This document shows positions 5,151 through 54,807 of a DNA stretch of 64,000 nucleotides, piece after piece (positions within the stretch are counted from its first letter, which is position 1; each line of letters starts with the position of its first letter). The position numbers were made by a program, and so were the translations under genes. This stretch comes from Dehalococcoidia bacterium. GTDB lineage: Bacteria > Chloroflexota > Dehalococcoidia > Bin125. The notes under the pieces were generated by a model. That model made no database searches. It had not been told where the DNA came from and saw nothing but the letters and a program-made list of their open reading frames with translations. Location of the stretch: assembly GCA_963555985.3 (NCBI GenBank), contig OY820591.1:2272001-2336000 (forward strand), read 5' to 3'.

Positions 5151-5159
5151 GGCGGACGC

Positions 5160-5202: not shown

Positions 5203-5210
5203 AAACTGAT

Positions 5211-6533: not shown

Positions 6534-6575
6534 TGCTCGTATTCCTTGGCGTAGGGGCGGTCAGGCGGATCGGGA

Positions 6576-33030: not shown

Positions 33031-34332
33031 CTACTCCCCCACTGACAGACCAACTGCGCCAGCGTCGCGCAGCGCTGTGACCTCCTCATCGCTGTAGCCG
33101 TGCTCGCGCAGGATGTCGTCGCTGTCGCCGTCGAAGATCGGCGAGGGGCCTCTGGCCTCAGGCGGCGAATCCGACATCCGATAGACCGGCCCGACCATCG
33201 ACTCGGGTCCCGTCAGGGGATGCTCGATTTCGGCGATCGCGCCGATCGCCTGAACCTGCGGATCGTCGACCATGTCTTCGGGCAGATTGACCTGAGAGGC
33301 CGGCGCACCGGTCGCGTCCAGCTTCACGATCCAATTGGCGGTCGTGTCACTGCGGAACTGTGCGGCGATGTTCTCTCGCGCCCGATCGACGATGTCGAGT
33401 GCGGCCGGATCGAGGGGATTGAAGCTCTCCAAATCGGTAGAGTCATCCTCCTCGGTCAGGTCAAGCGCCTGGCGAACCTGCCGCCGATTGAGCGGGGTCA
33501 GGCAGCCGAGCATGATCGCGCCATCAGCGGTCTGGTAGCCGCCGTAGTAGAGCGCGAAGGCGGCGCCGATCATTGATCGCACGCCGGTGCGCGCCTCGAG
33601 CAGCTCGCGGTAGGCGCCGCCTCGTTCGCGGATCTGCTGAATAGCTTCGAGCGACGGCTGGAGGAACGTGGCGTCGCTGACCGGCAATCGGGCGATGCCG
33701 AAGTTCTGGAGCGTGAGCGCAGCGCCCAGTAGCGACGTCTCGATTCGTTGGCCTCGACCCGTGCGCTCCCGGTGGAACAAGGCGGCGCAGACGGACATGG
33801 CGCTGGTCCAGGCGGCGCCGTAGTCGGCCGGGGTTGTGGCCGTGATCTGCATCGGGCCGCCGCGTTCATTCAGTTTCTCGTCGCCCGCCATCAGCCCGGA
33901 GTAGGCCTGCGCGATGATGTCAGCGCCGGCTCGGTGGGCAGATGGCCCTTCCGGACCGTAGGCGGTGTTCTGCAAATAGATCAGCCGCTCATTGCGCGCC
34001 CGCAAGGTCTCGTAGTCCACGCCGAGCCGCTGCGCGACACCCGGTCGCGCGTTGATCAGGAAGACATCGAAACCGCGGATCAGTCGGTGAACCACCGCGC
34101 GGCCCTGCTCAGTTTGCAGATTGAGGATGATGCCGCGCTTGCCCCGGTTGTAGACGTGGAAGACCTTCGACTCATTGGGCATGAACTGACCGACGCCGCG
34201 CGTGGCGTCGCCTTGCGGCGACTCGATCTTGACCACGTCAGCGCCGAGATCGGAGAGCATCACACCGCACATCGGCCCGGCGATGATCTGGGTCAGTTCG
34301 AGAACCTTGATCCCGTCGAGCGGACCGGGCAT
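33031..34332 (-). CDS. Class III CoA-transferase
   Basis: PLDGIKVLELTQIIAGP and NRGKR motifs. Confidence 0.93.
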   Translation of the reverse strand: MPGPLDGIKVLELTQIIAGPMCGVMLSDLGADVVKIESPQGDATRGVGQFMPNESKVFHVYNRGKRGIILNLQTEQGRAVVHRLIRGFDVFLINARPGVAQRLGVDYETLRARNERLIYLQNTAYGPEGPSAHRAGADIIAQAYSGLMAGDEKLNERGGPMQITATTPADYGAAWTSAMSVCAALFHRERTGRGQRIETSLLGAALTLQNFGIARLPVSDATFLQPSLEAIQQIRERGGAYRELLEARTGVRSMIGAAFALYYGGYQTADGAIMLGCLTPLNRRQVRQALDLTEEDDSTDLESFNPLDPAALDIVDRARENIAAQFRSDTTANWIVKLDATGAPASQVNLPEDMVDDPQVQAIGAIAEIEHPLTGPESMVGPVYRMSDSPPEARGPSPIFDGDSDDILREHGYSDEEVTALRDAGAVGLSVGE

Positions 34333-34341
34333 GAGCTACTC

Positions 34342-35643
34342 CTAGTCCTGCGGGGGCAGGCCAATCGCGCCGGAGGCTCGCAAGGCGGCGATCTCCTCGG
34401 CGCTGTAGCCATACTCGGCCAGGACTTCGTCGGTGTCGCCGTCGAGCGGGGGCGCTGCGCCTTCCGCTCGGGGCGGCGTGGCAGACATGTTGAAGGGCGG
34501 GCCAACCATCGTTTCGGGGCCGGTGATCCGGTGCTCAAGATCGGCCATGATGCCCAGGGCCTGCACCTGCGGGTCGTCGATCATCTCCTCGGGGATGTTG
34601 ACCTGGGCGGCGGGCGCGCCAGCGGCGTCGAGCTTGGCGATCCAGTTCTCGGTCGTGTCCGAGGCGAAGCGTTCCGAGATCAAGGCGCGGACACGAGCGA
34701 CGATCTCTTCCGAGCCGTCGGCCAGCGGGTTGAAATCGCCGCTGTCGGTCGGATCGTCGCCAGGCTCCAGTCCGAGTGCATTGCGCACCTGGCTGCGGTT
34801 GGGCGGCGTCACGCAGCCGAGCATGAGCGCGCCGTCGGAGGTCTGGTAGCCGCCGTAGTAGAGGAAGAAGGCGCCGCCGACGAGGGCGCGGAGTCCGCCG
34901 CGCGCGCCGAGCAGTTCGCGGTAGCTGCCGCCGCGTTCGCGGACGGCGGCGAGGCCGTTGAGGATCGGATTGAGCATGATCGCGTCGGAGACCGGCATCC
35001 GCGCAGTGAAGGCATTCTGCAAGACCAGCGCGCCGGCGAGCAGCGAGGTGTCGATCTTCTGGCCCTCGCCGGTGCGCTCGCGGTGGAAGAGCGCCGCGCA
35101 GACGGCGATCGTGCTGGTGAAGGCAGCGGCGAAATCGGCGGGCGTAGTGGCGGTGATCAGATCAGGGCCGCCGTGCTCGTCCACCTTCTCGTCGCCGGCC
35201 ATGAGGCCCGAATAGGCTTGGGCGATGATGTCCGCCCCAGCTCGGTGAGCGGAGGGGCCGGCCGGTCCGTAGGCGGTGTTCTCGAGATAGATCAACGACG
35301 GGTTGAGCGGGCGTAGGCTCTCGTAGTCGATACCCAGCCGCTCGGGCACGCCGGGTCGGGCGTTGATCAGAAAGACGTCCATCTCGGAGATCAGGCGGTG
35401 GACGACGGCCTGCCCGTCCGGGTCCTGGAGGTTGAGCACCATCCCGCGCTTGCCGCGATTGAAAACGTGGAAGCCCTTGCTCTCGCCGGGCGCGATCTGA
35501 CCGAGCAGGCGCATGCCGTCGCCGGCGGCCGATTCGATCTTGATCACGTCCGCGCCCATGTCGGAGAGCATCACTCCGCACATCGGCCCAGCGATGATCT
35601 GCGTGACTTCCAAAACTCTGACGCCATCCAGCGCTCCTGGCAT
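34342..35643 (-). CDS. Class III CoA-transferase (tandem paralog)
   Basis: Same motifs; closely similar to 33031-34332. Confidence 0.93.
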   Translation of the reverse strand: MPGALDGVRVLEVTQIIAGPMCGVMLSDMGADVIKIESAAGDGMRLLGQIAPGESKGFHVFNRGKRGMVLNLQDPDGQAVVHRLISEMDVFLINARPGVPERLGIDYESLRPLNPSLIYLENTAYGPAGPSAHRAGADIIAQAYSGLMAGDEKVDEHGGPDLITATTPADFAAAFTSTIAVCAALFHRERTGEGQKIDTSLLAGALVLQNAFTARMPVSDAIMLNPILNGLAAVRERGGSYRELLGARGGLRALVGGAFFLYYGGYQTSDGALMLGCVTPPNRSQVRNALGLEPGDDPTDSGDFNPLADGSEEIVARVRALISERFASDTTENWIAKLDAAGAPAAQVNIPEEMIDDPQVQALGIMADLEHRITGPETMVGPPFNMSATPPRAEGAAPPLDGDTDEVLAEYGYSAEEIAALRASGAIGLPPQD

Positions 35644-35898
35644 CTGGGGCTCCTCTCTCGGTGCAGTCAGATCGAGAGGATAGAGCGGCGCGCGGGAGGC
35701 GTTCGTTCGCTTCGAAGGAGCTCGGTCATGCGGGTTGGTGCTAGCTCAGCGCAGCGATGATTCGCCAACGTCTGTTTCGGCCTGGTCGAGCAAGGCCCAG
35801 ATCGGGGTGAAATCGAAGCTGAAACCGGGCAGGATGTCCTCACCGCCTAGCTGTTCGGGGCGTTCGAGGGATTGCGGCTCCTGATTGGGACGGTAGCT

Positions 35899-37125
35899 CT
35901 AGACAGCGCGGCGTTGGGGATCGACGAGCCAGCCGAGTTGAGCGCCGAAGCCGATCCAATCGGCGACGCGGCCTTGCTGATCGCTAAGCGCGTCGTTGGG
36001 CGAGCGAACTTCGACGACGAAAGCGGGGCAGAGGTTCAGAAACCTCTGCGCGGCGGAGCGCCCCCGGCGGCGGCAAGCTGCTCGGGCGTCATCCAGGAGA
36101 CGTTGGGACCCCAGAGCGGTTTGCGGCTTGGTGGGTTCACATTGCAACTGCAACAACTGCCGACCGAAGACTTCGGCCGGGGAGAGGTAGTCGAGGCACT
36201 GGCGGGGGGTGTTGTTGTACAACTGCAGCACTTCGATCAAACGCGCGAGGCTGAGTTGGGCGAGGTCGAGCCGGCGCGGCAGGACCCGGCGCAGGCGTCC
36301 GATCGCATTCTCGATCCCGCCCTTCTGCCAGGGCGCGTAGGGGTCGCAGAAGAAGGTCTCCACGCCCAGCCGGTGCAGTTCGTAGTGGCGGGCGAACTCG
36401 GTCCCGTTGTCGAACGCGACCGTGCGCCGCAGGGCGGGCGGCCAGGCGCGGAGCAGGCTGAGCAGCAGGCGCGCGACCGGAGCGGCCGCCTTGCCCGCCA
36501 CGGGCAAGCCCACGAGCAGCCGCGAGGAGCGCTCGTGCAGCATCAGCAGGAGCGGACCGCCGCGCCCGAAGAGCATCAGGTCGGCCTCCCAGTGACCGGC
36601 TTCGAGCCGCCCGGCGGCCGCCGCCGGGCGCTCGCTCAGGGGCCGCCGCAGTTGGATGCGCTCGACCGAACTGCCGCCTTTGCGCCCGCGCCAACCGCGT
36701 TTCGCCTTGCGCCGCGGCAGATACTGGCGCCAACCGCCGCCGCGGCCGGGCTTGGCCCGCGAGGCTTGGGCGTAGATGAAGCGATAGATGCTCTCGTGCG
36801 AGATCACCGGCGCGCCCGCCTCGCGCGCCAGCCGGCCTGCGACCTGTTGCGGCGAGAGCCCGCGGGCCAACTCGCGCAGCACCCGCGCGCGCAGCTGATC
36901 GTCGCGTTCCAGCCGCGAACCGCGCCAGCGCCGCGCCTGGGCCTGTTGCTGGGCGTAGTCGGGACGGTAGCCGTCGCGCGCCGTGTTGCGTTTCAGCTCT
37001 CGAGCAATCGTCGATGGCGAGCGATCCAGAGCTGCAGCGATCTGCCGGATCGAGCGCCCCTCGGCCTGTAAGCGGGCAACCGCGCATCGCTCCGCCAGGT
37101 CCAACTGCGTGTACTGCGCGCCCAT
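35899..37125 (-). CDS. IS30 transposase reading through its right end into Uma2 sequence
   Basis: HTH SIRQIAAALDRSPSTIARELKRN; GHWEAD, DNGTEF and PWQKGGIEN motifs. Confidence 0.93.
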   Translation of the reverse strand: MGAQYTQLDLAERCAVARLQAEGRSIRQIAAALDRSPSTIARELKRNTARDGYRPDYAQQQAQARRWRGSRLERDDQLRARVLRELARGLSPQQVAGRLAREAGAPVISHESIYRFIYAQASRAKPGRGGGWRQYLPRRKAKRGWRGRKGGSSVERIQLRRPLSERPAAAAGRLEAGHWEADLMLFGRGGPLLLMLHERSSRLLVGLPVAGKAAAPVARLLLSLLRAWPPALRRTVAFDNGTEFARHYELHRLGVETFFCDPYAPWQKGGIENAIGRLRRVLPRRLDLAQLSLARLIEVLQLYNNTPRQCLDYLSPAEVFGRQLLQLQCEPTKPQTALGSQRLLDDARAACRRRGRSAAQRFLNLCPAFVVEVRSPNDALSDQQGRVADWIGFGAQLGWLVDPQRRAV

Positions 37126-37170
37126 GGGCTCACCTCAATCATCTGTCGCACTTCGTCTGTGAGACTAGGC
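36130..37170 (-). mobile_element. IS30-family insertion sequence (1041 bp)
   Basis: Imperfect terminal IRs (TGTCGCACTT..TGTGA / TGTTGCAGTT..TGTGA); 2-bp TSD (TT at 36128-29 and 37171-72); removal restores the Uma2 sequence D-Q-S-R. Confidence 0.9.
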
Positions 37171-37534
37171 TTTGGTCGTCGCTGAGGTCGAAGCCGGCAC
37201 TGGACTCCTGGACCATGCCGCCGGCGCCGGCCTTGGCCCAGGCTCGGACTTCAGCACAGATTTCCACGCCAATGTACGAGCTTGCTCCGCCTGCGGGCAT
37301 GTTGATCTCCAGCGCTCCGAAGTGTCCGCGTTCCAAGCGCAGGTCCTGGTTGAGGCTGCACAGCTCTTCGAGACAATCGTTGGTCAGCGTCCAAGCTTCG
37401 GGCAGACGGATGCGGATCGGCCAGATCTTGACCGGCATCACCGAGATTTCCGGCTCTCGCGTCAGCCTGGTCGTCATGCGCGGCGCTCCCCTCACATGAC
37501 TATTCAGCCTAGCGACGTAGAGCTGGCGGGGGAG

Positions 37535-38824
37535 TCAGGAAGCCGAAGTGCCGATCGCGCCGGACGCGCGCAACTCCGCGATCCGCTCCGCCGAAAACCC
37601 AAATTCCGACAACACCGCATCCGTCTCCCCATCCAACACCGGCGACGAGCGCGCCGTACCCGTCGGCGTCGCCGACATCTCCACCAGCGCACCCACATGA
37701 CGCTCCGGCCCAGTCAGCGGATGCTCAATCTCCCGCATGATCCCCATCGCCTCTACCTGCGGATCCTCTCCGATCTCCTCCGGCCAGTTCACCGGCGACG
37801 CCGGCGCTCCGGCAGCGTCCAGGCGTTCCATCCACTCCCTCATCGTGCCGCTGCGCAGCTTGGCCGCGATCTGCTCCCGCACCCGCGCCACAATTCCGTC
37901 CGACTCCGGCGCGATCGCGTTGAAGTCGTCGTCATCCGTAGGATCGTCGCTAATCTCCAGGGCGCGCCGGATTTGCGCGCGGTTCTGCGGAGTCAGCGCA
38001 CCGAGAATGATCGCGCCGTCACGCACCGGGTAACCGCCGTAGTACAGGCGGAAGGCCTTGCCTTGGCGTGGCAGATCACGACGCGCAGCGTTCAGCTCGG
38101 CGTAGGATGCGCCCGCCTCACGCATCTGCGAGAGCGCCTCCCGCAGCGGATCAACCAAAATCGCATCGGAGACCGGTACCCGAGAAACCCAGCTGGACTG
38201 GAGCGTGAGACCGGCGGCGAGCAATGACGTCGAGAGAAACTGGCCCTCGCCCGTCCGTTCGCGGTGCCAGAGCGCCGCGCAGACGCCCATCGCCCCACCC
38301 AGCGCAGCCACGTAATCGGCGGGGGCAGTAGCTGTAATGTGCTCAGGCGCCCCGTCCGCGCCAACCTTCATATCGCCCGCCATCAGACCGGAATAGGCCT
38401 GCACCACAATGTCGGAGCCCGCGCGCTCGGCGCTGGGCCCGCGGCTGCCGAAGCCGGTGACGTGGAGGTAGATCAGATCCGGACGGATTGCACTGAGGGT
38501 CTCGTAGTCCATGCCGATGCGTTTGTCGACGCCGGGGCGGACATTGGTGACGAAGACATCGAACTGGGGGATCAACTCGTGCGCGACCTCTCTGCCGGCC
38601 GCTGCCGCCAGGTTGATCACGATCCCGCGCTTGCCCCGGCTCAGAGCATGAAATGCCTTACTCTCGCCCGGCGCGAACTGGCCAATCCGCCGCGCCCCCT
38701 CGCCGCCGGGCGGCTCCAGCTTGATTACCTCTGCGCCCAGATCAGCGAGCGCAGTCCCGCAATACGGCCCGGCGATAATCTGAGCCAGTTCGAGCACCTT
38801 GATGCCGTCGAGCGGACCGGGCAT
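37535..38824 (-). CDS. Class III CoA-transferase (third paralog)
   Basis: MPGPLDGIKVLELAQIIAGP and AGSDIVVQAYSG motifs. Confidence 0.93.
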   Translation of the reverse strand: MPGPLDGIKVLELAQIIAGPYCGTALADLGAEVIKLEPPGGEGARRIGQFAPGESKAFHALSRGKRGIVINLAAAAGREVAHELIPQFDVFVTNVRPGVDKRIGMDYETLSAIRPDLIYLHVTGFGSRGPSAERAGSDIVVQAYSGLMAGDMKVGADGAPEHITATAPADYVAALGGAMGVCAALWHRERTGEGQFLSTSLLAAGLTLQSSWVSRVPVSDAILVDPLREALSQMREAGASYAELNAARRDLPRQGKAFRLYYGGYPVRDGAIILGALTPQNRAQIRRALEISDDPTDDDDFNAIAPESDGIVARVREQIAAKLRSGTMREWMERLDAAGAPASPVNWPEEIGEDPQVEAMGIMREIEHPLTGPERHVGALVEMSATPTGTARSSPVLDGETDAVLSEFGFSAERIAELRASGAIGTSAS

Positions 38825-38904
38825 TGCCAACCTCCCGAGGTTGTTGGGGCAGGGTATGCCAGACGCCCGATTTAGACTGCAAGGCAAAGCTGAAAGAGGG
38901 AACC

Positions 38905-39768
38905 ATGAGCGACTACGAACACATCCTCTACGACCACGACGGCCCCGTCGTCACGATCACCTGGAACAACCCGGAGACCCTGAACGCAATCACGCCCGTG
39001 CTCGAGCGCGAGTTTCATGCCGCGCTCGATCAGGCCAACGCTGATCCGGACGCCCGCGCAATCATCTTCACCGGCGCAGGACGTGCCTTCTCCTCCGGCT
39101 ACAACATCGACGGCGGGATCGACAGTGAGGTAGCCGGCGCGCGCCTGCCCGTCTCCGAGCACCTGGAGCGCTGGTTCAACTTTTCGACCAAGAACCCAGA
39201 CATGATGATGCACCTGATGACGCTGGAGACGCCGATCATCGCGGCGGTCAACGGCTGGTGCATCGGCGGCGGCTTCTGGTACGCGCTGGCGGCGGATATC
39301 ACGATTGCCTCCGATCGCGCGGTCTTCGCCCAGCCGGAGGTGCGGATGATCTCGAATTCGTCCGTGCTGTTCGGGATTCTCGCAGGCTGGAAGGTCGCGC
39401 ACCGCTACGCGCTGACCGGCGACCACTTCGACGCCCAGGAAGCCCTCCGGATCGGCGTGATCAACGAGATCGCGCCAGCCGAAGATTTGATGGAGCGTGC
39501 AGACGCGCTGGCGCGGCGGCTAGCGCTAGTACCGGCTCACTCGGTTCGCTACAACAAGCTGATTACGGCTAGAGGCCTGGAGGCGATGGGTCTGCGCAAC
39601 GCGCTTAACGTCGGCTCGATGCTCTCCACCCTCGTCGAAGCCTCCGCCGACGGTCCCCAGGTGGAGCACCTGGACGAAGCCCGTCGCCAAGGCGGCTTCG
39701 GCGCGTTCCTGCGAGCGCGGGACGAACCATTCCGCCCCGAGCCGTTTGGCCCGCGCAGCGAGCGTTAG
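38905..39768 (+). CDS. Enoyl-CoA hydratase/isomerase family
   Basis: TGAGRAFSSG, PIIAAVNGWCIGGG and FAQPE motifs. Confidence 0.93.
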   Translation: MSDYEHILYDHDGPVVTITWNNPETLNAITPVLEREFHAALDQANADPDARAIIFTGAGRAFSSGYNIDGGIDSEVAGARLPVSEHLERWFNFSTKNPDMMMHLMTLETPIIAAVNGWCIGGGFWYALAADITIASDRAVFAQPEVRMISNSSVLFGILAGWKVAHRYALTGDHFDAQEALRIGVINEIAPAEDLMERADALARRLALVPAHSVRYNKLITARGLEAMGLRNALNVGSMLSTLVEASADGPQVEHLDEARRQGGFGAFLRARDEPFRPEPFGPRSER

Positions 39769-39769
39769 C

Positions 39770-42553
39770 GTGCCCCTCTCTCGCAACGAGCTGAGGCCGC
39801 GCGCGGCCGAATTCGCTCGGGATTGGGCCGACGCCACCTACGAGAAGGCCGAGACCCAGAGCTTCTACAACGAGTTCTTCGCCATCTTCGAGGTCAAGCG
39901 GCGCAGCGTCGCCCGCTACGAAGAGCACATAAAGCGGCTCGACAATTCAGGCGGCTTCATCGATCTGTTTTGGCCGAAAGTGCTGTTGGTCGAGCAGAAG
40001 AGCGCTGGCCGGAGTTTGGCGGCGGCGCGCGAACAGGCGCTTGGCTACTTCGACGCCCTGCCAGAGTCTGAGCGCCCGCGCTATCTGCTGCTCTGCGACT
40101 TTCAAAACTGGGAACTGCTCGACCTCGATCTCGAGGAAGAAGTCCGCTTTGCGCTGCACCAGTTGCCGGACTACATCGACCAATTCAATTTCGTGCAGGG
40201 TTTGCAAAAGCACCCCTTCCGCGATCAGGATCCGGTCAATATCGACGCATCCGAGCTAATCGGCGCAGTCTACGACGGGCTGAATGCGTCCGGCCATCGC
40301 GGTCATGCACTCCAGCGCTTTCTCGTGCGGATCGTCTTCTGCCTCTTCGCCGACAACACCGGAATCTTCGAACGCGACAGCTTCCTGCAACTGCTGGAGG
40401 AGCGCACCTCCCCGGACGGCGCCGACACCGGCATGTGGCTCGACCACCTGTTCACTGTGCTCGACACGCCTGTGGCCGAGCGGTCAACGCTGCTCGACGA
40501 AGATCTCGCAGCATTTCCCTACGTGAACGGCGACCTATTCAGAGAACGATTGGATGCGCCGGACTTCGACTCCAGTTTGAGAACGTCGCTGATCAACGCG
40601 GCGCGCTTTGATTGGTCGAGAATTTCGCCAGCGATCTTCGGCGCGTTGTTCCAGTCGGTAATGAATCCCGACGAGCGCCGCGCGATGGGGGCGCACTACA
40701 CCACGGAGCAGAACATCCTCAAGGTGATCGAGCCACTCTTTCTCGATGACCTGCGGGCCGAATTTGAGCACCTCAAGCAGAACCGCGGAACGCGGCGACG
40801 GGCGGAACTGGAGCGCTTCCAACGCCGGCTCGGTGAGCTGCGCCTGTTCGACCCGGCCTGCGGCTGCGGCAACTTCCTGATTATCGCCTACCGAGAGCTG
40901 CGCCGGCTTGAAATCGAGGTGTTGCAGGAGCTGTATCCGTTCACTGAGACGGCAGCGCTGGACGTGTCTCAGCTCTCCAACATCAATGTGCACCAGTGCT
41001 ATGGAATCGAGATTCTCGACTTTTCCGCCCGCATCGCTGAGACCGCGCTCTGGATGATGGACCACATCATGAACGTGCGCCTCTCGGAGCAGCTCGGGCA
41101 GTATTTCGCGCGTATTCCGCTGGGCGAGTCGCCGCACATTCGCTGCGCCGACGCGCTCGAGATCGACTGGAACGACGTGCTACCGGCAGAGCAGTGCAGC
41201 TATGTCTTCGGCAATCCACCGTTCGTTGGCTCCAAGCTACAAACGCGGAGGCAACGGGATCAGATCCGGCGAATCGCCGATCTCGGCGGCAGTGGTGGCT
41301 CGCTCGACTACGTCGCCGCCTGGTTCCTGCTCGCCGCTGAGTATGTGCAACGCGGCGAAGCTCAGATCGGCTTCGTCGCAACCAACTCGATCACGCAGGG
41401 TCAGCAGGTCGGTCAGCTCTGGCCACTGCTCTTCAACCGCCACGGGCTCGAGATCGTCTATGCGCACCGTGCCTTCGCCTGGGGTTCAGACGCCAAGGGA
41501 ATAGCGCGCGTGCATGTCGTCGTGATCGGTTTGACTCGGTCAACGGCAGCACGTGCGAAGCGGGCACTCTACTCATATGACGATCTCAAGGGCGAACCGT
41601 CTCAGAGCGTGCATCGAGCCATTTCGCCGTATCTGATCGACGCCGACGCGCTCCAAAATCCACACCTGACAGTCAAATCAGCGTCATCGCCGCTCAACGG
41701 CCTCACACCGCTTCGCTACGGTACACAGCCGATAGACGACGGGAACTTGATTCTGAACGCGACTGAACGTTCGAAGATACTGAGTCAGTGCCCCAACCTC
41801 GAACCCCACGTGCGGCCGTTCGTCGGCGCACAGGAATTCTTGCAAGGAGGAGAGCGGTGGCTACTGTGCTTGGAAACTGCTCCACCTGCGAGCATCCGCT
41901 CGTGTTCCGACGTTGCGAAACGAATCTCGGCGGTTCGCGAGTTTCGCTCGAAAAGCAAGCGGGCAGTCACTCGTGAACTGGCAGCCAAGCCAAGGAGCTT
42001 TGCATTTTCGACGATTCCTGCCAACCCGTTTCTGACGATTCCTGAAGTCAGTTCGGAGCGCCGAGAGTACGTTCCGATCGGTTGGTTGGAGCCGCCAACC
42101 ATTCCCAGCAACCTGGTTCGGGTCCTCGAAGCTGCAACGCTCTGGCAATTTGCGTTGTTGACCTCGGCGATGCACAACGCCTGGATGCGCACTGTGGCAG
42201 GTCGCCTCGAAAGTCGTTACCGCTACTCAATCGGGATTGTCTACAACACTTTCCCTCTGCCCGACGCCGACGACGAGCAACTGCAAACGCTCGCCCCTCA
42301 CGCCCAGGTCGTGCTGGACGCCCGCGCACAGTTCCCGGACGCCTCCCTCGCCGATCTCTACGACCCCGACCTCATGCCGCCGCCGCTGCGCAAAGCGCAC
42401 CAACAACTCGACCGCGCCGTAGACCGCCTCTACCGCCGCGCCCCCTTCCGCTCCGAGCGCGAGCGAGTCGAACACCTGCTGGGGCGTTACGAGCGGATGG
42501 TTGCGCCACTCGAAGCGACGCGGCCCAAGCGTCGCCAACGTCGCTCTCGCTAA
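39770..42553 (+). CDS. MmeI-like type IIL restriction-modification enzyme
   Basis: N-terminal IDLFW..LLVEQKS nuclease motif; GAHYT, DPACGCGNF, GNPPF and SSERREYVPIG motifs. Confidence 0.92.
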   Translation: MPLSRNELRPRAAEFARDWADATYEKAETQSFYNEFFAIFEVKRRSVARYEEHIKRLDNSGGFIDLFWPKVLLVEQKSAGRSLAAAREQALGYFDALPESERPRYLLLCDFQNWELLDLDLEEEVRFALHQLPDYIDQFNFVQGLQKHPFRDQDPVNIDASELIGAVYDGLNASGHRGHALQRFLVRIVFCLFADNTGIFERDSFLQLLEERTSPDGADTGMWLDHLFTVLDTPVAERSTLLDEDLAAFPYVNGDLFRERLDAPDFDSSLRTSLINAARFDWSRISPAIFGALFQSVMNPDERRAMGAHYTTEQNILKVIEPLFLDDLRAEFEHLKQNRGTRRRAELERFQRRLGELRLFDPACGCGNFLIIAYRELRRLEIEVLQELYPFTETAALDVSQLSNINVHQCYGIEILDFSARIAETALWMMDHIMNVRLSEQLGQYFARIPLGESPHIRCADALEIDWNDVLPAEQCSYVFGNPPFVGSKLQTRRQRDQIRRIADLGGSGGSLDYVAAWFLLAAEYVQRGEAQIGFVATNSITQGQQVGQLWPLLFNRHGLEIVYAHRAFAWGSDAKGIARVHVVVIGLTRSTAARAKRALYSYDDLKGEPSQSVHRAISPYLIDADALQNPHLTVKSASSPLNGLTPLRYGTQPIDDGNLILNATERSKILSQCPNLEPHVRPFVGAQEFLQGGERWLLCLETAPPASIRSCSDVAKRISAVREFRSKSKRAVTRELAAKPRSFAFSTIPANPFLTIPEVSSERREYVPIGWLEPPTIPSNLVRVLEAATLWQFALLTSAMHNAWMRTVAGRLESRYRYSIGIVYNTFPLPDADDEQLQTLAPHAQVVLDARAQFPDASLADLYDPDLMPPPLRKAHQQLDRAVDRLYRRAPFRSERERVEHLLGRYERMVAPLEATRPKRRQRRSR

Positions 42554-42579
42554 CCGGTTCGATTGACGAGCTCACGTAG

Positions 42580-42678
42580 GCAGACGGTCCGCAGGTAGAG
42601 CACCTGGACGAGGCACGACGTCAGGGCGGCTTCAGAGCGTTCCGGCCGGAGCTGTTTGGTCCGCGAAGCGCGCGCTAG
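42580..42678 (+). pseudogene. Remnant copy of the enoyl-CoA hydratase 3' end (39646-39768)
   Basis: ADGPQVEHLDEARRQGGFRAF/RPELFGPRSAR*; 29/32 aa identical, 24-nt deletion. Confidence 0.9.
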
Positions 42679-42899
42679 CCGGCGGCGATGACAATCGCCA
42701 CAGCCAAGCCTGCGATCGCGAGCATCGCCAGGATCAGCTGAACCTGCTGACGCGCGAACATCGCTTGCAGTCGCAGTTCGAATTCTTCGCGCGTCGGGTA
42801 CTCAGACATCGCGTCGGTGAACTCGTCCGCGTCTTCCGAGCTCGCGCCAATCTTGCGCAGCACCCTCCGAATCCGCAGCATTGGCGTCATCACGGTCAT
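42675..42899 (-). CDS. Small membrane-anchored protein, DUF1640/CCDC90-like
   Basis: LRKIGASSEDADEF head, PTREEF neck and C-terminal TM helix; paralog at 45085. Confidence 0.65.
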   Translation of the reverse strand: MTVMTPMLRIRRVLRKIGASSEDADEFTDAMSEYPTREEFELRLQAMFARQQVQLILAMLAIAGLAVAIVIAAG

Positions 42900-42990
42900 G
42901 ACTGGCAGCCTCCCGCCGGGACGTTCAGGTTCGGGCGTCTGCTAGCCTCAGCCTAGCCAGTGGGTGACGCGCCGTCATTGGAGAACAAAG

Positions 42991-43542
42991 ATGGTTCGGG
43001 TTGAAGGACTGTATGACCTGGAGACGGTGCGGCGCGAGTGGATCGGGCGCAAGACCGAGGTCGTGCCCGGCCGCTATCCGGTCGAATACGACAGCATCCG
43101 CCGCCACTGCCACATGGTCGAAGACACCAACCCGCTCTTCCTCGATCCCGAATACGGCAAGGCCTCGGAGTGGGGCGCCGTGATCGCGCCGCCGGTGATG
43201 ACCCGCTACTTCGCCGGCGCAGGCGTCTGGCCGCCAACCTCGTCCGACCAGATGGCGACCCTGACGCGCGCCATTCCCACACGCGGCGTGCGCATGATCA
43301 ACCTCAACACCGAGTGGGAGTACTTACTGCCCGCCAAAGTCGGCGATCACCTCGCCTCGCAGACCGAGGTGACCGACATCTACGAGAAGTCGATCCGGCT
43401 CGATCCGCGCTCCGTCTGGATCGTCACCGAGACCAGGATCACGAATCAGCACGGCGAGTTGGTCGCCGTCGGCACCAACACGCTCTGCACCCATCGAACC
43501 CCCGAACAAGTCGAAGCAGAGGAAGGCGAGCGCCCGCTATGA
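42991..43542 (+). CDS. MaoC/FAS1-like dehydratase, N-type subunit
   Basis: IRRHCHMVEDTNPLFLDPEY and IAPP motifs. Confidence 0.88.
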   Translation: MVRVEGLYDLETVRREWIGRKTEVVPGRYPVEYDSIRRHCHMVEDTNPLFLDPEYGKASEWGAVIAPPVMTRYFAGAGVWPPTSSDQMATLTRAIPTRGVRMINLNTEWEYLLPAKVGDHLASQTEVTDIYEKSIRLDPRSVWIVTETRITNQHGELVAVGTNTLCTHRTPEQVEAEEGERPL

Positions 43543-44003
43543 CGACCCGAACCGCTCCGAACAGCATCGCAACCGAACAAACCTATTGGAACGATGTCCG
43601 CGTCGGCGACCTGATTGACGGCTACGACCTGAGCTTGGACTGGACCAAGATGGTCGAGCAGGTCTCGGGCTCGCAGGACTTCTATCCCGTCCACCACGAC
43701 CCCGAATTCGCCGCCGAAGCCGGACATCCCGCCATCTTCTACAACACCGGCTTCACCCAGGCCGCGCTCTGCCGCGTGATCACCGACTGGGCCGGACCGG
43801 CCGGCTGGCTGCAAAAGTTCCGCTTCGAGATGCGGCGCATGAACATTCCCAACGACCAGGTGCACGCGCGCGGCAAGGTTGTCGGCAAAGCCAACCTGGA
43901 CGACGCTCACGGCACGGTCGAACTCGAAGTCTGGCTCGAAAACGACCGCCTCGGCGTGACCACCCCCGGCTGGGCGACCGTACGCCTGCCCAAGCGCAGC
44001 TAG
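43539..44003 (+). CDS. MaoC-like dehydratase
   Basis: SQDFYPVHHDPEFA hydratase motif; ATGA coupling. Confidence 0.88.
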   Translation: MTTRTAPNSIATEQTYWNDVRVGDLIDGYDLSLDWTKMVEQVSGSQDFYPVHHDPEFAAEAGHPAIFYNTGFTQAALCRVITDWAGPAGWLQKFRFEMRRMNIPNDQVHARGKVVGKANLDDAHGTVELEVWLENDRLGVTTPGWATVRLPKRS

Positions 44004-44034
44004 CGGCGGCGACCCACTGACCTCGGAGACGCCC

Positions 44035-45075
44035 ATGACACGGATCGGCATCATCGGCGCCGGCGCCATCGGCGGTACTGTTGGCGGAATGCTCACCCGC
44101 GCCGGCTACGACGTGACCCTGATCGATCACTGGGTCGAGCACGTCGAAGCGATGAAGGCCAACGGCCTGCGCCTATCGGGGCCGCTGATCGGCGATATCC
44201 GCGTGCCGGTCAAGGCGCTCCATCTCTACGAGGTGCAGGCCATCTCCGAGCCGTTCGACATCGGCATCGTCGCGGTCAAGTCCTACGACACCGAGTGGGC
44301 CACCCACCTGCTCAATCCCTTGGTGCGCGAGAACGGCGCGGTCGTCGACTTCCAAAACGGCATCAACGACGAGCGAGTCGCCGCCATCGCCGGGCGCGAC
44401 CGCACCCTCGGCTGCGTGATCACGATCGGTTGCGGGATGTACGACCCCGGCCACTGCCTGCGCACCGACACCCGCACGCTGGGCTTCAAAGTCGGTGAGC
44501 TGGACGGCTCAGACTCCGACCGCGCCCGCGAGATCGCCGCCATCATCAATCACGTCGCCGGCGCCGAGTCCACCACCAACCTCTGGGGCGAACGCTGGGG
44601 CAAGCTCGCCGTCAACTGCATGGCCAACCCCATCGCCGGACTCTCCGGCTACGGCTCCGGCGAGGTCCGAGCCCGCAACGAGACCCGCTGGCTCTGCACC
44701 CGCATCGCCGCCGAGGTGGTCCAGGTAGGCCGTGCCTACGGTCACCAAATCGACGCCGTTTGGGGCATCCCTGCGCAGAAGTTCATAGACGTAGCCAACG
44801 GCGCCGATCCAGCAGAGCTGGACGCCGAGCTCATCGCCGGAGCGCAAGCGCTCGGCGCAGGCCGCCCCAGCTTCCTCCAAGACGTCATCCGCCGCCGCCG
44901 AGTAGAAATCGACGCCCTCAACGGCTGGGTAGTCGAACAAGGCCAAGCCGTAGAAGTACCCACCCCAATCAACGCCGCAGTCACAGAAGTGGTGCGGTCG
45001 TTCGCGGTCGGGGAGTTGCAATCGGATCCAGCCAACATCGGCCGAATCATGAAACGGCTTGAGGGAAGTCGGTAG
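44035..45075 (+). CDS. Ketopantoate reductase family protein
   Basis: GAGAIG, VKSYDT, QNG, WGKLAVN, SFLQD and EIDALNG motifs. Confidence 0.92.
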   Translation: MTRIGIIGAGAIGGTVGGMLTRAGYDVTLIDHWVEHVEAMKANGLRLSGPLIGDIRVPVKALHLYEVQAISEPFDIGIVAVKSYDTEWATHLLNPLVRENGAVVDFQNGINDERVAAIAGRDRTLGCVITIGCGMYDPGHCLRTDTRTLGFKVGELDGSDSDRAREIAAIINHVAGAESTTNLWGERWGKLAVNCMANPIAGLSGYGSGEVRARNETRWLCTRIAAEVVQVGRAYGHQIDAVWGIPAQKFIDVANGADPAELDAELIAGAQALGAGRPSFLQDVIRRRRVEIDALNGWVVEQGQAVEVPTPINAAVTEVVRSFAVGELQSDPANIGRIMKRLEGSR

Positions 45076-45084
45076 GGTTGGCCC

Positions 45085-45321
45085 ATGGCGCTCAACCCAC
45101 TTCGCATCCGTCGCAGCGTCATCAACCTCGGAGCGACCGAAGATCAGGCTGACGAGGCAACCGAAGCGCTGATCGAAGGATTCGCCGGTCTCGTGACCAC
45201 CGAAGACCTGCACGCCGCGCTAGGAGCGCTGGAACATCGCATTGTCAATCGGCTGCTGCTCGCGATGATTGGTCTGAGCGCTGTCATCATTGGATCGGTG
45301 GCGCTGATTGTCCATTTGTAA
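45085..45321 (+). CDS. Small membrane-anchored protein, DUF1640/CCDC90-like
   Basis: LGATEDQADE, LVTTEDL and C-terminal TM helix. Confidence 0.7.
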   Translation: MALNPLRIRRSVINLGATEDQADEATEALIEGFAGLVTTEDLHAALGALEHRIVNRLLLAMIGLSAVIIGSVALIVHL

Positions 45322-45338
45322 CCGGGGAGAGCGGTGCA

Positions 45339-45588
45339 ACACCGGCGGGTGCAGCGGTGCCTAGAGTAGTGCGGTTAGTTCCGGGGAGGATCGGCTGAGT
45401 CGCGGATCCGATCGAACGAATTCGATTGGCCTGTCCTGCCGCCTTGAATCCACCTCGCACGAGTGTCGCATCATCGGCATTGGCGCGACCGAAGAGCAGG
45501 CGGACGACTTCGTCGATGCAATCAGCGGCCCGGCAACCGAGGTAAGCTCGAACCAAGCCCACACACGCTGGCGAAATCAAATGCAATG
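45339..45588 (+). pseudogene. Decayed copy of the ketopantoate reductase 3' end plus a second small-gene copy
   Basis: TPAGAAVPRVVR versus TPINAAVTEVVR; then ALNP and, after a frameshift, IGATEEQADDFVDAI. Confidence 0.7.
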
Positions 45589-47445
45589 AACATGTCAGAT
45601 TCGAATAGGCCCATCACTGCTCAGGAACTCATGTCATGCGGCTGGGAGGATGTGTTACGCGGTCTCAATGAACAAGGCTATATGGCCATGGAGGGCGAAT
45701 TCAGGAAGGCGGCGGCAGTCGCATTCGAGCAGGATCGGACCACCGATGGAAGTGCACTTCGCCTGCTGGCCGAGCTGTGCTCAATGATGCTCTCCGTTTC
45801 TGACTCCAAAGTCCCGTTCAGACCCGAGTGGGTATTGGAGGACCGACGATCCAGAATTCCAGACGACTTGCTTCCTGCAGAAACTGCCGCTCTTTCTGAT
45901 TTCGTCCCGACAGTGGAGAATCCATGGCTCAAGGGGCGTCTTGCTCACGTTGTGTGGATCGCGAGCAAGCCACGGGATGTTCCGTTCGCGTTGATGACGA
46001 TTGATTGCTATCGGTCGTTGCCGCTAACCGTTTCCGCGTGGCTTCACGGCAGTCACGCCGCATGGGCTCAAGCGATCATGCTCAGCAAGGGTCTGCGAGA
46101 CGCAGTTGGCAACCGCCTAGAGGAAGTCGAGCACGCTCTCGTCGAGACAGCCTTGTCCTCAGAGTTCGGGCAGGAGGTACCGATTCTGCCGATCGGCCGC
46201 CTTCTCCGGAAACACGGACTCGGCAAATCAAGAGCCGGCGACATCGCGTCTCTGTTCGCCAAATGCGCGCAGGGCATTGCTGCGGACGGCGAACACACCA
46301 ACGCTGCTGCCTACTTCGAGCAGGCGAGCGAGTGGTACGGCGTCGCCGACGACCGGAATTCGCAAATCGAGATGATCGTCGCCGAGGCGGAATCGTACGT
46401 CGCGGAGGGTGAACAGCGTCTCCAGTCAGAGGCGCCCTCAGCCTCAGTCGCCGCCTCATGGTTCAATGACGCGGTCCAGGCCTACCGCAAGGTTCCGAGT
46501 GCCGAGCGATCACGATTTGGCATCGATGAGCGGATTCATGACCTGCGCATGTTGTTGTCTGAAACGAGGCGTGAGTCCATGAGCGAGTTCAAGACTTTTG
46601 AGACTAGTACCGATGTCTCAGAAGCAGTAACGCGAATACAAGACGAATTGCGGGGCCACGATCTCCCTCAATCGCTCAAACGCTTTGCCGCTCTGGTCGC
46701 GCCGCCGTCCCACCAACAGATGATTGACGAGGCAAAGGCGATTGCCGAGCAGACCATCTTTACGAAGCTGTTCGGCGTCAGTCACATGAGTTCCGACGGC
46801 CGCGTGGTTGGGCACCGGGACCCTTCCCGTCCCGACAATGCGGAGCAGGAGGACAAGGGTCTTGAAGACGATACGTTTCGCCAGTACCAGCACACATTCG
46901 GCTTCATCGGCGCCTGTGTAGTCGAACCAGCGCGACTTGTGATTTCAGAAGAACATCAGCTAACGGAGCGCTACTTTGCAGAGCTCGCTGCGGTGTCTCC
47001 ACTCGTGCCTCTCGGTCGTGAGATCATATTCGCAAAGGGCCTCCACGCTGGGTTCGTCGGTGACTACGTTACTGCTGCCCACTTGCTGATACCTCAGTTC
47101 GAGCATTTCATTCGCTGCGCTATTGCGAACACCGGAGGTCCAACGACGAATCTCTACGACTCTGGCGTCGAGCACCACAAGACCCTCGACGCTCTTCTGG
47201 CGCTCCCTGAAGCAGAACCCACATTTGGGAAAGATCTGTTCGAGATGTTGAAAGCCATCCTCTCCGATCCGAACGGCGAAGGCTTGCGAAACCAGATCGC
47301 GCACGGCCTGCTTGACGATCACGATTTCCCGTGGGACCGCGCAGCATTTCTGTGGGGACTAGCACTGTCGCTCACAGTCAGATCACTCGTCGTAGATGGT
47401 GGAACGATTCCGGATCTTCGAGGGTCGGACGATCCTGCAATGTGA
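45586..47445 (+). CDS. DUF4209 (HEPN-like) domain protein
   Basis: HLLIPQFEHFIR and GLRNQIAHG (R-x4-H) near the C-terminus; atypical codon usage. Confidence 0.8.
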   Translation: MNMSDSNRPITAQELMSCGWEDVLRGLNEQGYMAMEGEFRKAAAVAFEQDRTTDGSALRLLAELCSMMLSVSDSKVPFRPEWVLEDRRSRIPDDLLPAETAALSDFVPTVENPWLKGRLAHVVWIASKPRDVPFALMTIDCYRSLPLTVSAWLHGSHAAWAQAIMLSKGLRDAVGNRLEEVEHALVETALSSEFGQEVPILPIGRLLRKHGLGKSRAGDIASLFAKCAQGIAADGEHTNAAAYFEQASEWYGVADDRNSQIEMIVAEAESYVAEGEQRLQSEAPSASVAASWFNDAVQAYRKVPSAERSRFGIDERIHDLRMLLSETRRESMSEFKTFETSTDVSEAVTRIQDELRGHDLPQSLKRFAALVAPPSHQQMIDEAKAIAEQTIFTKLFGVSHMSSDGRVVGHRDPSRPDNAEQEDKGLEDDTFRQYQHTFGFIGACVVEPARLVISEEHQLTERYFAELAAVSPLVPLGREIIFAKGLHAGFVGDYVTAAHLLIPQFEHFIRCAIANTGGPTTNLYDSGVEHHKTLDALLALPEAEPTFGKDLFEMLKAILSDPNGEGLRNQIAHGLLDDHDFPWDRAAFLWGLALSLTVRSLVVDGGTIPDLRGSDDPAM

Positions 47446-47463
47446 TCGACCACCAAGAGGAGC

Positions 47464-48660
47464 TTACGCCCCATTCCCAGGACCACCAAACTCCGGCAAC
47501 ACCTTCTCCGAGAAATCCTCAATCGTCCGCAAAATCTGACCCCGCGACAACAGCCCGTTGTACTGCCACATGAAAATCCAACTCACCGGCGTCACATCCA
47601 GCATGTTCTGCACCTGACGCTTGACCGAATCCAGCGTCCCCGCAAACAGCAAACCGTTCTCCAACTGCTCCTCCAGCGTCAAGAGCTCGCCGCCCGGAGG
47701 ACGCAGCGCCTCCGCGAAGCCGAAGGGAGCGAACCAAGCGCCGCCCGCAAACGCCGCCGAGTGACGCCAGAGCTCGATCGCCTCCTCGTCGGTGTCCGTG
47801 ATGATCACGTCGCGCAGCACGCCCAGACCCTCGCCCGGCTTCAGCTCCCGCCCCACTGAGGCCGCCTCTTCCTGGTAGACCTCGTAGAGCCGGTTCTGCA
47901 GCTCCGGGTACATCGGCGGCAAGATCGCCGTGATCCCCTCGCGGGCGCACCAGCGGATCGTCCGCTCCGACGAGGCGAACGGCTGGAACAGCGGCGGGTG
48001 CGGCTTTTGCAGCGGCTTGGGCACGACCCCGATCTGGCGCACGATGTTGTTCTCATCCACACCCTTGCCGTACATCCGCGTCGCCTCGATGTCCCAGGGC
48101 GTGCCCTCGGGCGGAATCTGCCAGGCGTGACCCTTGTACTCGACCATCTCCTCGGTCCAGCACTTGCGGATGATGTTGAAATGCTCCTCAAAGGCGGCGC
48201 GGTTGGCCGCGTCAATCGCATCGTGGTTACCTGGATGCGCCGCGTGAACGCCGTGGATCTGCTGCGCGAGCGTGTCGACCCAGCGCCGCTGATACCCCCG
48301 CGCAAAGCCCGCGAGCGCCCGACCGCCGGTCATGTGGTCGAGCATCGCAATGTCCTCGGCTACCCGAATCGGGTTCTGCGCGGGCAAGACCAGCCCAAGC
48401 TGTCCGACGCGGATGCGCTCCGTCTGCATCGCCAGGTAAAGGTCGAGCATGATCGGATTCGGCGAGACCTCGAACCCCTCAATGTGGAAGTGATGCTCGG
48501 TGAACCCGATCGAGTCGTAGCCGAGCGCGTCGCCGGCTTTGGCGAACTCCGACAAGTCCGCCAGCATCTCCTGATACAGCTCGGGACGGTTGCCGGCCAT
48601 GCCCGCTTCGATGTCTTCACGGGTACCGACGGAGGGGAGGAAGAAGAGACTGACCTGCAT
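47464..48660 (-). CDS. Luciferase-like (LLM) flavin-dependent oxidoreductase
   Basis: FTEHHF, NPIRVAEDIAMLDHMTGGR and PKPLQKPHPP motifs. Confidence 0.93.
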   Translation of the reverse strand: MQVSLFFLPSVGTREDIEAGMAGNRPELYQEMLADLSEFAKAGDALGYDSIGFTEHHFHIEGFEVSPNPIMLDLYLAMQTERIRVGQLGLVLPAQNPIRVAEDIAMLDHMTGGRALAGFARGYQRRWVDTLAQQIHGVHAAHPGNHDAIDAANRAAFEEHFNIIRKCWTEEMVEYKGHAWQIPPEGTPWDIEATRMYGKGVDENNIVRQIGVVPKPLQKPHPPLFQPFASSERTIRWCAREGITAILPPMYPELQNRLYEVYQEEAASVGRELKPGEGLGVLRDVIITDTDEEAIELWRHSAAFAGGAWFAPFGFAEALRPPGGELLTLEEQLENGLLFAGTLDSVKRQVQNMLDVTPVSWIFMWQYNGLLSRGQILRTIEDFSEKVLPEFGGPGNGA

Positions 48661-48676
48661 GGGAGATCCTATATCT

Positions 48677-48734
48677 GCCCCTCTCCCTCTGGGAGAGAGC
48701 CTGCCCCCGCGAAGGCGGGGGGATGGGGTGAGGG
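48677..48734. repeat. REP-like palindrome
   Basis: CCCCTCTCCCTCTGGGAGAG-AGCCTGCCCCCGCGAAGGCGGGG-GGATGGGGTGAGGG. Confidence 0.75.
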
Positions 48735-49499
48735 CTACGAGCCGAGGTCGTTGAGGAATAACGAAACGGCGTCGTTGAAAGCGGACGGATTGTCGATGTT
48801 GGCGGCGTGACCGGCGTCTGGGACGACGACGTGCGTGCTGTTGAGGATCCGGTTCGCCATGTAGTCGGTCCCGGCCAGGAACGGCGTGTCGTTCTCGCCG
48901 ACGAGGACGAGCGTAGGCTTCTCGATCGATTTGAGCGATTGGATCACGCGGTTGTCGAACTGCGCCAGCATCCCCCGCGCAGCCCTAGCCAGACCCGCTG
49001 CCGAGCGGTGCGTCGAAACCCGTACCTCCTCGGAACCGCCCAGCGCCGCCAGACCGTCCTGCTCCAACGCCTCCGCCCGAGGAATCGCCATGCCGGTGTT
49101 CCAACCCTCACGAGCCTTGGGGTTGTTGTAACCGGGACCGGTGTCGAACAGCATCAGCGCCCGCGTCCGCTCGGGATGGACGAGGTGGAACGCTAGCGAC
49201 ATATACCCGCCCAGCGACAATCCGCCAATCACCGCGTCGTCCACACCTTCGGCGTCCAGAATCGCCGCCATGTCCGCCACCGTCTCCGCCTCGCTGTAGC
49301 AGGACAAGTCCTCAGGCGAATCGGTCTGCCCATGCCCGCGCATGTCCCAGACGATCAGCCGATAATCCGCCGAAAGCAGCTCCAGCTGCCCAGCCCACAT
49401 CTGCGAAGTCGCCCCATACCCATGAGACAGCAGAATCGCCGGACCCGAACCCAGCGCCTCGTAGTAGACAGTCACCCCATCGCGCTCAATCGAAGCCAT
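48735..49499 (-). CDS. Alpha/beta hydrolase
   Basis: DMRGHG, GLSLGG, GEND and AGHAAN motifs. Confidence 0.93.
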   Translation of the reverse strand: MASIERDGVTVYYEALGSGPAILLSHGYGATSQMWAGQLELLSADYRLIVWDMRGHGQTDSPEDLSCYSEAETVADMAAILDAEGVDDAVIGGLSLGGYMSLAFHLVHPERTRALMLFDTGPGYNNPKAREGWNTGMAIPRAEALEQDGLAALGGSEEVRVSTHRSAAGLARAARGMLAQFDNRVIQSLKSIEKPTLVLVGENDTPFLAGTDYMANRILNSTHVVVPDAGHAANIDNPSAFNDAVSLFLNDLGS

Positions 49500-54148: not shown

Positions 54149-54793
54149 TCAGCGCGACCGCTCGTGGATGAACGCAGCAATCGCATCTGCCGCATCAACC
54201 AGGTTGTCCTCCTGCGTCCGCCCCGAGCGTTTGCGCGGCCTCAAACCGTGATCGCCGTCCCCGACCCAATGCAGCCGAATCGTTGGGCTCAGGTCATACG
54301 CCTCAACCTCCTCGCGGTTGCCATACTCATCGCGTTCGCCTTGCACGATCAAGGTGGGCGTGTTGAGGAGTTGCAGATGCACGGTCATCGCCCGCGAAGG
54401 ATCACGCGGCGCATGAAACGGATAACTCACACACACCAGTCCGGCGGGCTCCACCGAATCCGCAATGTAGCTCGCCACCCGCCCACCCATGCTGCGCCCG
54501 CCGAAGAAGAGCTGATGCGTGGGCACGCCTTGCTGAGACAGCTGCTGGATCACCTGGAACCAGGCTGAGGCGAGGACGTCATCGGGATCCGGCGGCCAAG
54601 GACGGCGTCCCGCTTCCATGGCGCGGCGCATGTAGGGGAAGTCGAAACGGGCCACGCGCACGCCACGCTCGGCGATCAGTTCGGCCAGCCGAGTGGTGTT
54701 CGGGTGAGTCGAGGAGGCGCCCGCTCCGTGCGTCAGCACGAGCGTGGGCGCGGGCGGCGACTCTGGCAGGTTCCAGATCAGCGGCGTGTCCAT
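54149..54793 (-). CDS. Alpha/beta hydrolase (KANL3/Tex30-like)
   Basis: HGAGA, GRSMGGR, QGERD and GDH motifs. Confidence 0.9.
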   Translation of the reverse strand: MDTPLIWNLPESPPAPTLVLTHGAGASSTHPNTTRLAELIAERGVRVARFDFPYMRRAMEAGRRPWPPDPDDVLASAWFQVIQQLSQQGVPTHQLFFGGRSMGGRVASYIADSVEPAGLVCVSYPFHAPRDPSRAMTVHLQLLNTPTLIVQGERDEYGNREEVEAYDLSPTIRLHWVGDGDHGLRPRKRSGRTQEDNLVDAADAIAAFIHERSR

Positions 54794-54807
54794 GTGTCGG
54801 CAAGCCG

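Follow-up and report, generated by a model that had tools for sequence, protein, structure and literature searches.

We have analysed a 64,000-nucleotide (nt) stretch of the genome of an uncultured Dehalococcoidia bacterium (NCBI GenBank assembly GCA_963555985.3, contig OY820591.1, positions 2,272,001 to 2,336,000 of the forward strand; the window), in which a solitary restriction-modification (R-M) gene of the MmeI family stands between two versions of the 3' end of one enoyl-CoA hydratase gene. The hydratase gene is intact and ends in the first version (copy A), and the second version (copy B) lies behind the R-M gene as an orphaned remnant (Table 1; all coordinates are those of the window). 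The R-M gene is an insertion, its two junctions are real, and both versions of the hydratase end have been under selection. We propose, with moderate confidence, that the hydratase 3' end was displaced by recombination with a diverged relative, which brought in the MmeI-family gene together with a substitute hydratase end.

The comparison of the two ends carries this proposal. In an alignment with one 24-nt in-frame gap in B, 82 of 99 bases are identical; as the corresponding stretch of A is flanked by TTCC, four placements of the gap are equivalent. Twenty-nine codons specify the same residue in both copies, 16 of them identical and 13 synonymous, and three are replacements (A/B: GGC/AGA, G to R; CCG/CTG, P to L; GAG/GCG, E to A). 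The base differences are spread evenly over the length, with 14 of the 17 at codon position 3. Calculated according to Nei and Gojobori, the synonymous divergence (dS) is 1.00 and the non-synonymous divergence (dN) 0.051, giving a ratio of 0.05. Synonymous sites between A and B are saturated, and the silent divergence of the copies is as large as that between genera. Identical codons among those with the same residue (16/29) do not exceed what random synonymous choice with the codon usage of this genome would give (13.2 +/- 2.6), so that the nucleotide likeness of the copies is explained by the shared peptide alone. The longest identical run amounts to 14 nt (GAGCACCTGGACGA) and lies in the interior of the repeat, not at its edge. 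The eight codons deleted from B are kept in all ten orthologous ends examined. A first-pass annotation had described 42580-42678 as a repeat of the hydratase end with 13 synonymous and three non-synonymous codon changes plus a 24-nt deletion, and each of these numbers proved correct. In a search of the 3.33-Mb assembly with the hydratase end, the remnant is the sole other significant match (83.6% over 67 nt, E 1.4e-13); one further match of 24 nt is due to chance.

Such a pair of copies could have arisen if the target was duplicated on the spot and the remnant copy then decayed. Insertion of R-M genes with a long target duplication was reportedly described by Nobusato et al. in 2000. It is also the subject of Furuta, Abe and Kobayashi (2010; PMC2853133), whose paper, in the portion considered here, numbers three criteria: restriction and modification functions within the insert, an insert below 20 kb and a repeat above 30 bp. 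All three fit the present locus, the repeat being in single copy at the empty site of the relatives, and the insert is likewise free of a mobility gene, a trait that in the same portion belongs to the description of the class and not to the numbered criteria. The repeats given there match at 44/46 to 47/47 positions, whereas here the match is 82/99 with synonymous differences at saturation; A and B therefore cannot be one duplicated target. The locus thus has the formal traits of a long target duplication but lacks the implied near-identity of the repeats at birth. Under a null model in which the target is duplicated on the spot, one copy stays coding and the other decays, 5000 simulated runs yielded at least 14 position-3 differences once (1/5000) and three or fewer non-synonymous codons never (0/5000); when the active copy evolves five-fold faster, these outcomes rise to only 6% and 4%, respectively. 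The position-3 excess (14/17) has a binomial P of 4.7e-5 against 1/3, and of 1.9e-3 against 0.45, the share expected under the one-coding/one-decaying model. It follows from the simulations that A and B were both coding for nearly all of their divergence, and both have been shaped by purifying selection across a divergence that saturates synonymous sites. Duplication on the spot is thus very unlikely, and the earlier claim that this is no simple target duplication and that both ends evolved under selection stands.

It is extremely improbable that the arrangement is an assembly or co-assembly chimera of two strains. The assembly is of the metagenome type with an estimated contamination of 7.5%, and strain variants of the remnant region do exist, as one contig from run X5 covers 42621-42950 with 9 differences (X stands for runs, G, L and P for genomes, loci and proteins, and g7, g8 and g9 for genera). 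Both junctions are nevertheless bridged without a single difference by per-run contigs from X2 and X3, which cover 39402-39879 and 42408-43319, the latter as contigs of 912 nt in two runs; X2 and X3 are two samples of one study, possibly including the source sample, and are not fully independent. The interval 42540-42600, for which a lack of spanning reads had been proposed beforehand as the sign of a chimera, is among the bridged parts. The left junction is also bridged (39588-39916) by a 329-nt contig with 16 differences from run X1 of another, third study, which stems from a relative that is about 95% identical; cover in this run is low to the right of the MmeI gene. This relative has the left junction too, and the decay of B fits an insertion at least as old as that split. 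Joints that skip the 2.9-kb insert were absent among the 15 joints listed of 98, which says nothing on excision because contigs cannot show rare forms.

The site of insertion is evident from the relatives. Two other genera and two metagenome contigs share the order CoA-transferase(-), hydratase(+), small membrane-protein open reading frame (ORF)(-), two dehydratase genes and reductase. From species-representative genomes 33 family loci were obtained, and the 30 with flanks were counted. In none of the 30 does an MmeI gene separate the hydratase from its right neighbour, and every one has a single hydratase tail. The junction is tight in 22 loci; six hold other cargo of 0.7-2.4 kb, which by eye, from the N-termini of the ORFs, looks like carboxyltransferase, transposase, acyl-CoA dehydrogenase and DUF899-type genes, and the remaining two are without the small ORF and both dehydratase genes. 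In the six relatives with other cargo the hydratase's own tail is not repeated downstream, save for two weak matches of 28-35 nt in L149. The remnant in the window abuts the small ORF just as the hydratase does in relatives: the stop of the small ORF overlaps the TAG of the remnant, and elsewhere it overlaps or abuts the hydratase stop. To judge from this shared order, the MmeI gene is inserted into the ancestral junction of the hydratase and the small ORF. The first-pass annotation had the R-M gene arriving with a replacement 3' end from a relative and displacing the resident one; the insertion, the two selected versions and the remnant in ancestral adjacency stand; A as the foreign end and an R-M-linked donor are conjectural.

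Table 1. Features at and around the insertion, in window coordinates.
Feature	Position	Strand	Remarks
Family III CoA-transferase gene	37535..38824	-	Pfam CoA_transf_3, E 1.9e-92; start at 38824 from an exact look-up
Enoyl-CoA hydratase/isomerase family gene	38905..39768	+	287 amino acids (aa), intact, ends in copy A; Pfam ECH_1
Copy A, active hydratase end	39646..39768	+	123 nt, last 40 codons and TAG
Stretch missing from the remnant	39706..39729	+	24 nt, 8 codons (FLRARDEP), in A and all orthologues; flanked by TTCC
MmeI-family type IIG/IIL restriction-modification gene	39770..42553	+	927 aa, GTG start 1 nt past the hydratase stop, TAA stop
Spacer from MmeI stop to remnant	42554..42579	+	26 nt; 3' end is TAG in the remnant frame
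Copy B, orphaned non-coding hydratase 3'-end remnant	42580..42678	+	99 nt, 32 codons and TAG
Small membrane-protein ORF, convergent	42675..42899	-	74 aa; exact protein recorded
Two overlapping hot-dog/MaoC dehydratase genes	42991-43542 and 43539-44003	+	conserved right flank; exact look-ups, MaoC domain, synteny

The same loci bear on a further explanation, by which two tandem hydratase paralogues diverged under selection within one genome and the MmeI gene then took the place of the spacer and of about 90% of the second copy, sparing its last 32 codons. This would account for the saturated synonymous sites together with the lineage-specific glutamines described below, with no foreign end needed. 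A class-level relative (G029) indeed has four adjacent hydratases, 48-53% identical to the query, and in this region tandem paralogues are seen of the CoA-transferases and of the small ORF. No second hydratase, however, stands at this position in any of 41 loci (0/30 family loci, 0/9 related loci and 0/2 metagenome loci), the five congeneric proteins that carry both glutamines lie on five different contigs, and no second protein of this type is present among the 131 hydratase homologues. We regard a vanished tandem paralogue as unlikely.

Hydratase orthologues are 81-89% identical to the window's protein (P0246) in g7 and g8, and 93-97% identical in congeneric contigs; the five congeneric hydratases were compared as proteins only. 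A and B each have the glutamines (Q) of ADGPQ and RRQGG, and among the 131 homologues (down to 59% identity) only the window protein and the five congeners have both, compared with none of the ten orthologous ends from other genera. Both ends are therefore of this genus's type. The tail of A (ADGPQ...RRQGGFGAF...PEPFGPRSER) is common to the five congeners except at the final one or two residues and at single positions in three of them. Of the residues specific to B, A in PRSAR also occurs in P0248, whereas a single GC-to-AT transition suffices for R (from GGA) and for L (from CCG). The changes in B, its 24-nt deletion included, look like neutral decay of a few per cent since translation of B ceased. 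The contigs holding P0004 and P0248 have the right-flank genes and A-like hydratase tails, and no MmeI homologue was found on them among the best 120 in the database (down to 62% identity). The expectation that the remnant should match alleles lacking the R-M gene was thus not borne out, since such relatives match A, not B, at the protein level. The P0003 contig has an MmeI-family gene (P0136), only 66% identical to the window's, whose nearest relatives are alleles at another site that is empty in the window (54787-54814). If collinearity is assumed, the length of the P0003 contig gives a weak hint that it cannot hold both this insert and P0136.

Protein mosaics are also visible among the congeners. 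In the hydratase, 6-15 differences fall in residues 1-95 and 0-2 each in residues 96-200 and 201-285; the window groups within its relatives (11 differences to the nearest vs 13-18 among the others). For the reductase, the window stands outside the relatives (20-25 differences vs 7-16). These mosaics, along with that of the MmeI allele described below, make an import by recombination plausible, without proving it. In a breakpoint search with 96-nt windows of the hydratase against ten orthologues of other genera, which are too distant to resolve one, no switch was visible. A stretch at about 39240-39390 (alignment columns 336-480) shows 92-96% DNA identity between genera, with 70-85% in the rest of the gene; it could reflect recent exchange or a constraint on DNA or RNA.

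In the displacement that we propose, the ancestral locus would have consisted of CoA-transferase(-), hydratase(+) and small ORF(-). A segment with the solitary MmeI-family gene and the hydratase 3' end of another lineage of the same genus, as distant as the synonymous saturation implies, would then have recombined into the hydratase. The hydratase would have stayed intact, now ending in A, with the MmeI gene following after 1 nt and presumably co-transcribed. The other end, B, would have been pushed 2.9 kb downstream, where it was no longer translated and decayed by a 24-nt slippage deletion and two or three replacement changes. We infer the donor, the polarity and the route of this displacement, and two routes can be envisaged. 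In the first, an MmeI unit with a long target duplication in the donor would loop out between its repeats and enter the diverged host through one Campbell-type crossover within the homology of about 120 nt; the copies would then be reciprocal hybrids that differ along their whole length, matching the even spread of differences. The second route would be homology-facilitated illegitimate recombination, anchored in the hydratase and joined illegitimately at 42579/42580, for which a 96-nt hydratase stretch that is 92-96% identical even between genera is a possible context. Each route has a precedent in principle, the first in the long target duplications of R-M genes (PMC2853133) and the second in the orphan 3' stubs at toxin loci (PMC5361080).

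Several points weigh against this displacement. All five congeneric tails are A-like, and the B-specific R and L occur in 0/5; since these residues may be decay, the A-like tails do not refute an imported end. The donor or resident allele was not seen at the DNA level, as the best matches in the metagenome and species-representative genome scans reach 89% and all come from other genera. This MmeI allele was not found behind a hydratase in any further genome, and the best non-self match to the window's enzyme among 5.8 billion proteins is 73% identical. Flanking repeats accompany close MmeI homologues in only two of eight independent contexts. Homologous recombination is inefficient between sequences that are about 82% identical and share no identical run above 14 bases, and the comparison of A with B is based on a sample of 32 codons. 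The same short run also implies that A and B can hardly recombine to delete the insert, and such hindered repeat-mediated loss would favour the survival of diverged pairs like this one.

Enzymes of the MmeI family cut about 20 nt from their site and methylate one strand only. The start of the window's gene was picked from the N-termini of homologues, and all five MmeI domains of Pfam are above their cut-offs (MmeI_Mtase, E 5.8e-84); PADLOC assigns the gene to REase_MTase_IIG (E 0). With phmmer against the PDB, residues 1-917 align with residues 1-909 of the 5HR4 chain, MmeI of Methylophilus methylotrophus (E 5.7e-261), so that both are alike over the full length. The motifs FDPACGCGNFL and GNPPFVG are conserved relative to MmeI and are what we take to be gamma-class N6-adenine methyltransferase motifs. 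As in MmeI, a separate methyltransferase gene is absent beside the gene, the neighbours being the hydratase and the 74-aa ORF. Window residues D65/E75/K77 align under D70/E80/K82 of MmeI, the PD-ExK residues that serve as a family criterion in the part of Morgan et al. (2009; PMC2731913) used here. The gene product is hence an ordinary new member of the MmeI family and a predicted enzyme. It departs from MmeI in its recognition part (about residues 600-750), which in steps of 50 residues has only 24-62% identity with the five nearest alleles compared (P0124, P0125, P0126, P0128 and P0136). The window allele shares 98% of residues 301-400 with P0124 but only 28-44% over residues 601-750, where identity to the compared alleles is 28-62%, and it is closest to P0128 over residues 451-600, a mosaic that suggests domain exchange among alleles.

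With regard to known systems, the locus is most readily compared with C-terminal displacement, which Jackson et al. are said to have described in 2009, as cited by Kirchberger et al. in 2017. The excerpted text of Kirchberger et al. (2017; PMC5361080) describes orphan 3' stubs left by such displacement at Rhs, contact-dependent inhibition (CDI) and type VI secretion system (T6SS) effector loci, and proposes a route that combines a homologous anchor with an illegitimate join. Homology-facilitated illegitimate recombination has a low efficiency according to the part of PMC3240628 considered. The likeness lies in a new 3' end on a conserved 5' part and an old end shifted downstream as an orphan stub. 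Unlike the toxin loci, where, in the portion cited, a different toxin domain is swapped in under selection, both ends here encode the same peptide of a metabolic enzyme, the cargo is an R-M gene and the displacement is a by-product. In its topology the locus equals C-terminal displacement, the anchor being a metabolic gene and the cargo an R-M gene.

A comparable topology is produced by integrative elements that restore the 3' end of a tRNA or protein gene on integration, among which are recombinase-less, cis-mobilisable derivatives. Site-specific integration of a recombinase-less MmeI cassette with a surrogate hydratase end, moved by a tyrosine or serine recombinase acting in trans, would explain the repeat of the target 3' end at both borders and the intact target with an element-borne end, and a surrogate end borne by the unit would naturally be diverged at synonymous sites. 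A parallel exists in three g9 genomes, where an MmeI homologue 62-64% identical to the window's lies behind tRNA-Ser(gga) and no other gene accompanies it. In two of these carriers (L054 in G015 and L055 in G008; 4798-7833), a repeat of the tRNA 3' end, 24-28 nt long, stands 7-11 nt past the stop, and three other g9 genomes (L218, L219, L220) have an uninterrupted tRNA-Ser site without MmeI. A parallel to g9 is listed among the long target duplications in PMC2853133, in the portion used: a type IIG/S gene stands at a tRNA there, and the repeat measures 47 bp. Among 16 loci of close homologues and one more, repeats were found only at the window and the g9 tRNA site. In contrast to integrative elements, the 2,811-nt insert is a single bifunctional gene with MmeI domains only, no other ORF with a family match and no mobility gene; a recombinase is present neither in nor beside the unit, and the identical core does not exceed 14 nt. 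Neither the unit nor its ends occur a second time in the genome, and the stretch bounded by the repeats does not include the nearest transposase-like gene (35899-37125). We hold such an integration to be quite unlikely.

The hydratase is a predicted crotonase-family member (ECH_1, E 2.5e-41, 142 bits vs a Pfam cut-off of 27), and the CoA-transferase is its divergent left neighbour, with orthologues at the same position in relatives. The 26-nt spacer has no homology to the hydratase or the neighbouring ORF; CTCTCGC and ACGAGCT are common to it and the start region of the MmeI gene when compared by eye, possibly by chance. Copy B, with an in-frame TAG just before it (42577-42579), is outside any current ORF. 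The small ORF has four cluster mates at 88-91% identity and no match in Pfam or PADLOC. Three tandem copies of its homologue stand behind the hydratase in L140 and L166 (8883-9601), and the window (45085-45321), like many relatives, has a further paralogue on the other strand behind the reductase. An ORF at 43038-44003, considered as a single 'MaoC' gene, was rejected as a mis-framed merge: a protein search with it gave no matches, only the high G+C content keeps its frame open, and the real units are the two dehydratase genes of Table 1, joined by an ATGA overlap. A search of 34000-49000 found no Rfam family. In 38500-43200 a promoter scan returned none and a terminator scan gave three terminator-like sites vs 3.5 expected; the one inside the remnant (42639-42652) is not significant.

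To the left, an IS30-like ORF (35899-37125, minus strand) has HTH_38 and a weak rve match below the Pfam cut-off, and its C-terminus runs into a piece resembling a Uma2 nuclease; relatives have further CoA-transferase paralogues there. A homologue of this ORF with 58% identity lies 1.4 kb downstream of the MmeI gene in G007 (L045).

MmeI genes are found at four different junctions of a conserved region of roughly 30 kb across the relatives. At 54787-54814 of the window, genes for a luciferase-like monooxygenase and an Abhydrolase_11 protein are adjacent, an empty site into which four g8 genomes (L044, L045, L047, L048) have an MmeI homologue slotted almost ORF-precisely, with 12-44 nt upstream, a stop that overlaps the next start or precedes it by 10 nt, and no target repeat. 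Between NHL-repeat and RibD_C genes the window has a pair of DarT (PF14487, E 2.5e-41) and a macro-domain, DarG-like protein (24441-26152); the same junction in G066 (L049) holds an MmeI homologue with 63% identity. An ORF with DUF7380 and DUF4209 (45463-47445), which matches the PADLOC defence candidate PDC-S39 (E 5.7e-172), separates the reductase/small-ORF genes from the luciferase-like monooxygenase gene. This junction holds the closest MmeI homologue among the genomes compared in G053 (L042/L151; 71%), and is empty or carries at most 3.6 kb of other DNA in other relatives.

Solitary R-M genes are widespread, and their movement without mobility genes is poorly explained. The MmeI genes in this Dehalococcoidia family may travel as recombinase-less single-gene units, each with a copy of the final codons or bases of the gene that it follows; this copy would act as a landing pad for one crossover into a new host and, where recoded at synonymous sites, as a lock against loop-out by which such insertions persist, a generalisation that we put forward as speculative and rather improbable. 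The locus itself keeps a rare footprint, as two versions of the same 32 codons, selected in different lineages, bracket an R-M gene. A repeat-flanked R-M insertion hence need not be a target duplication, and the case links the spread of R-M genes with the displacement of 3' ends seen at toxin loci. Should the donor arrangement turn up in congeneric genomes, the transfer route would be directly readable, and the value of the case rises if more units with recoded gene ends are found. It is also a concrete example of how an insert could gain stability when its flanking repeats diverge at synonymous sites.

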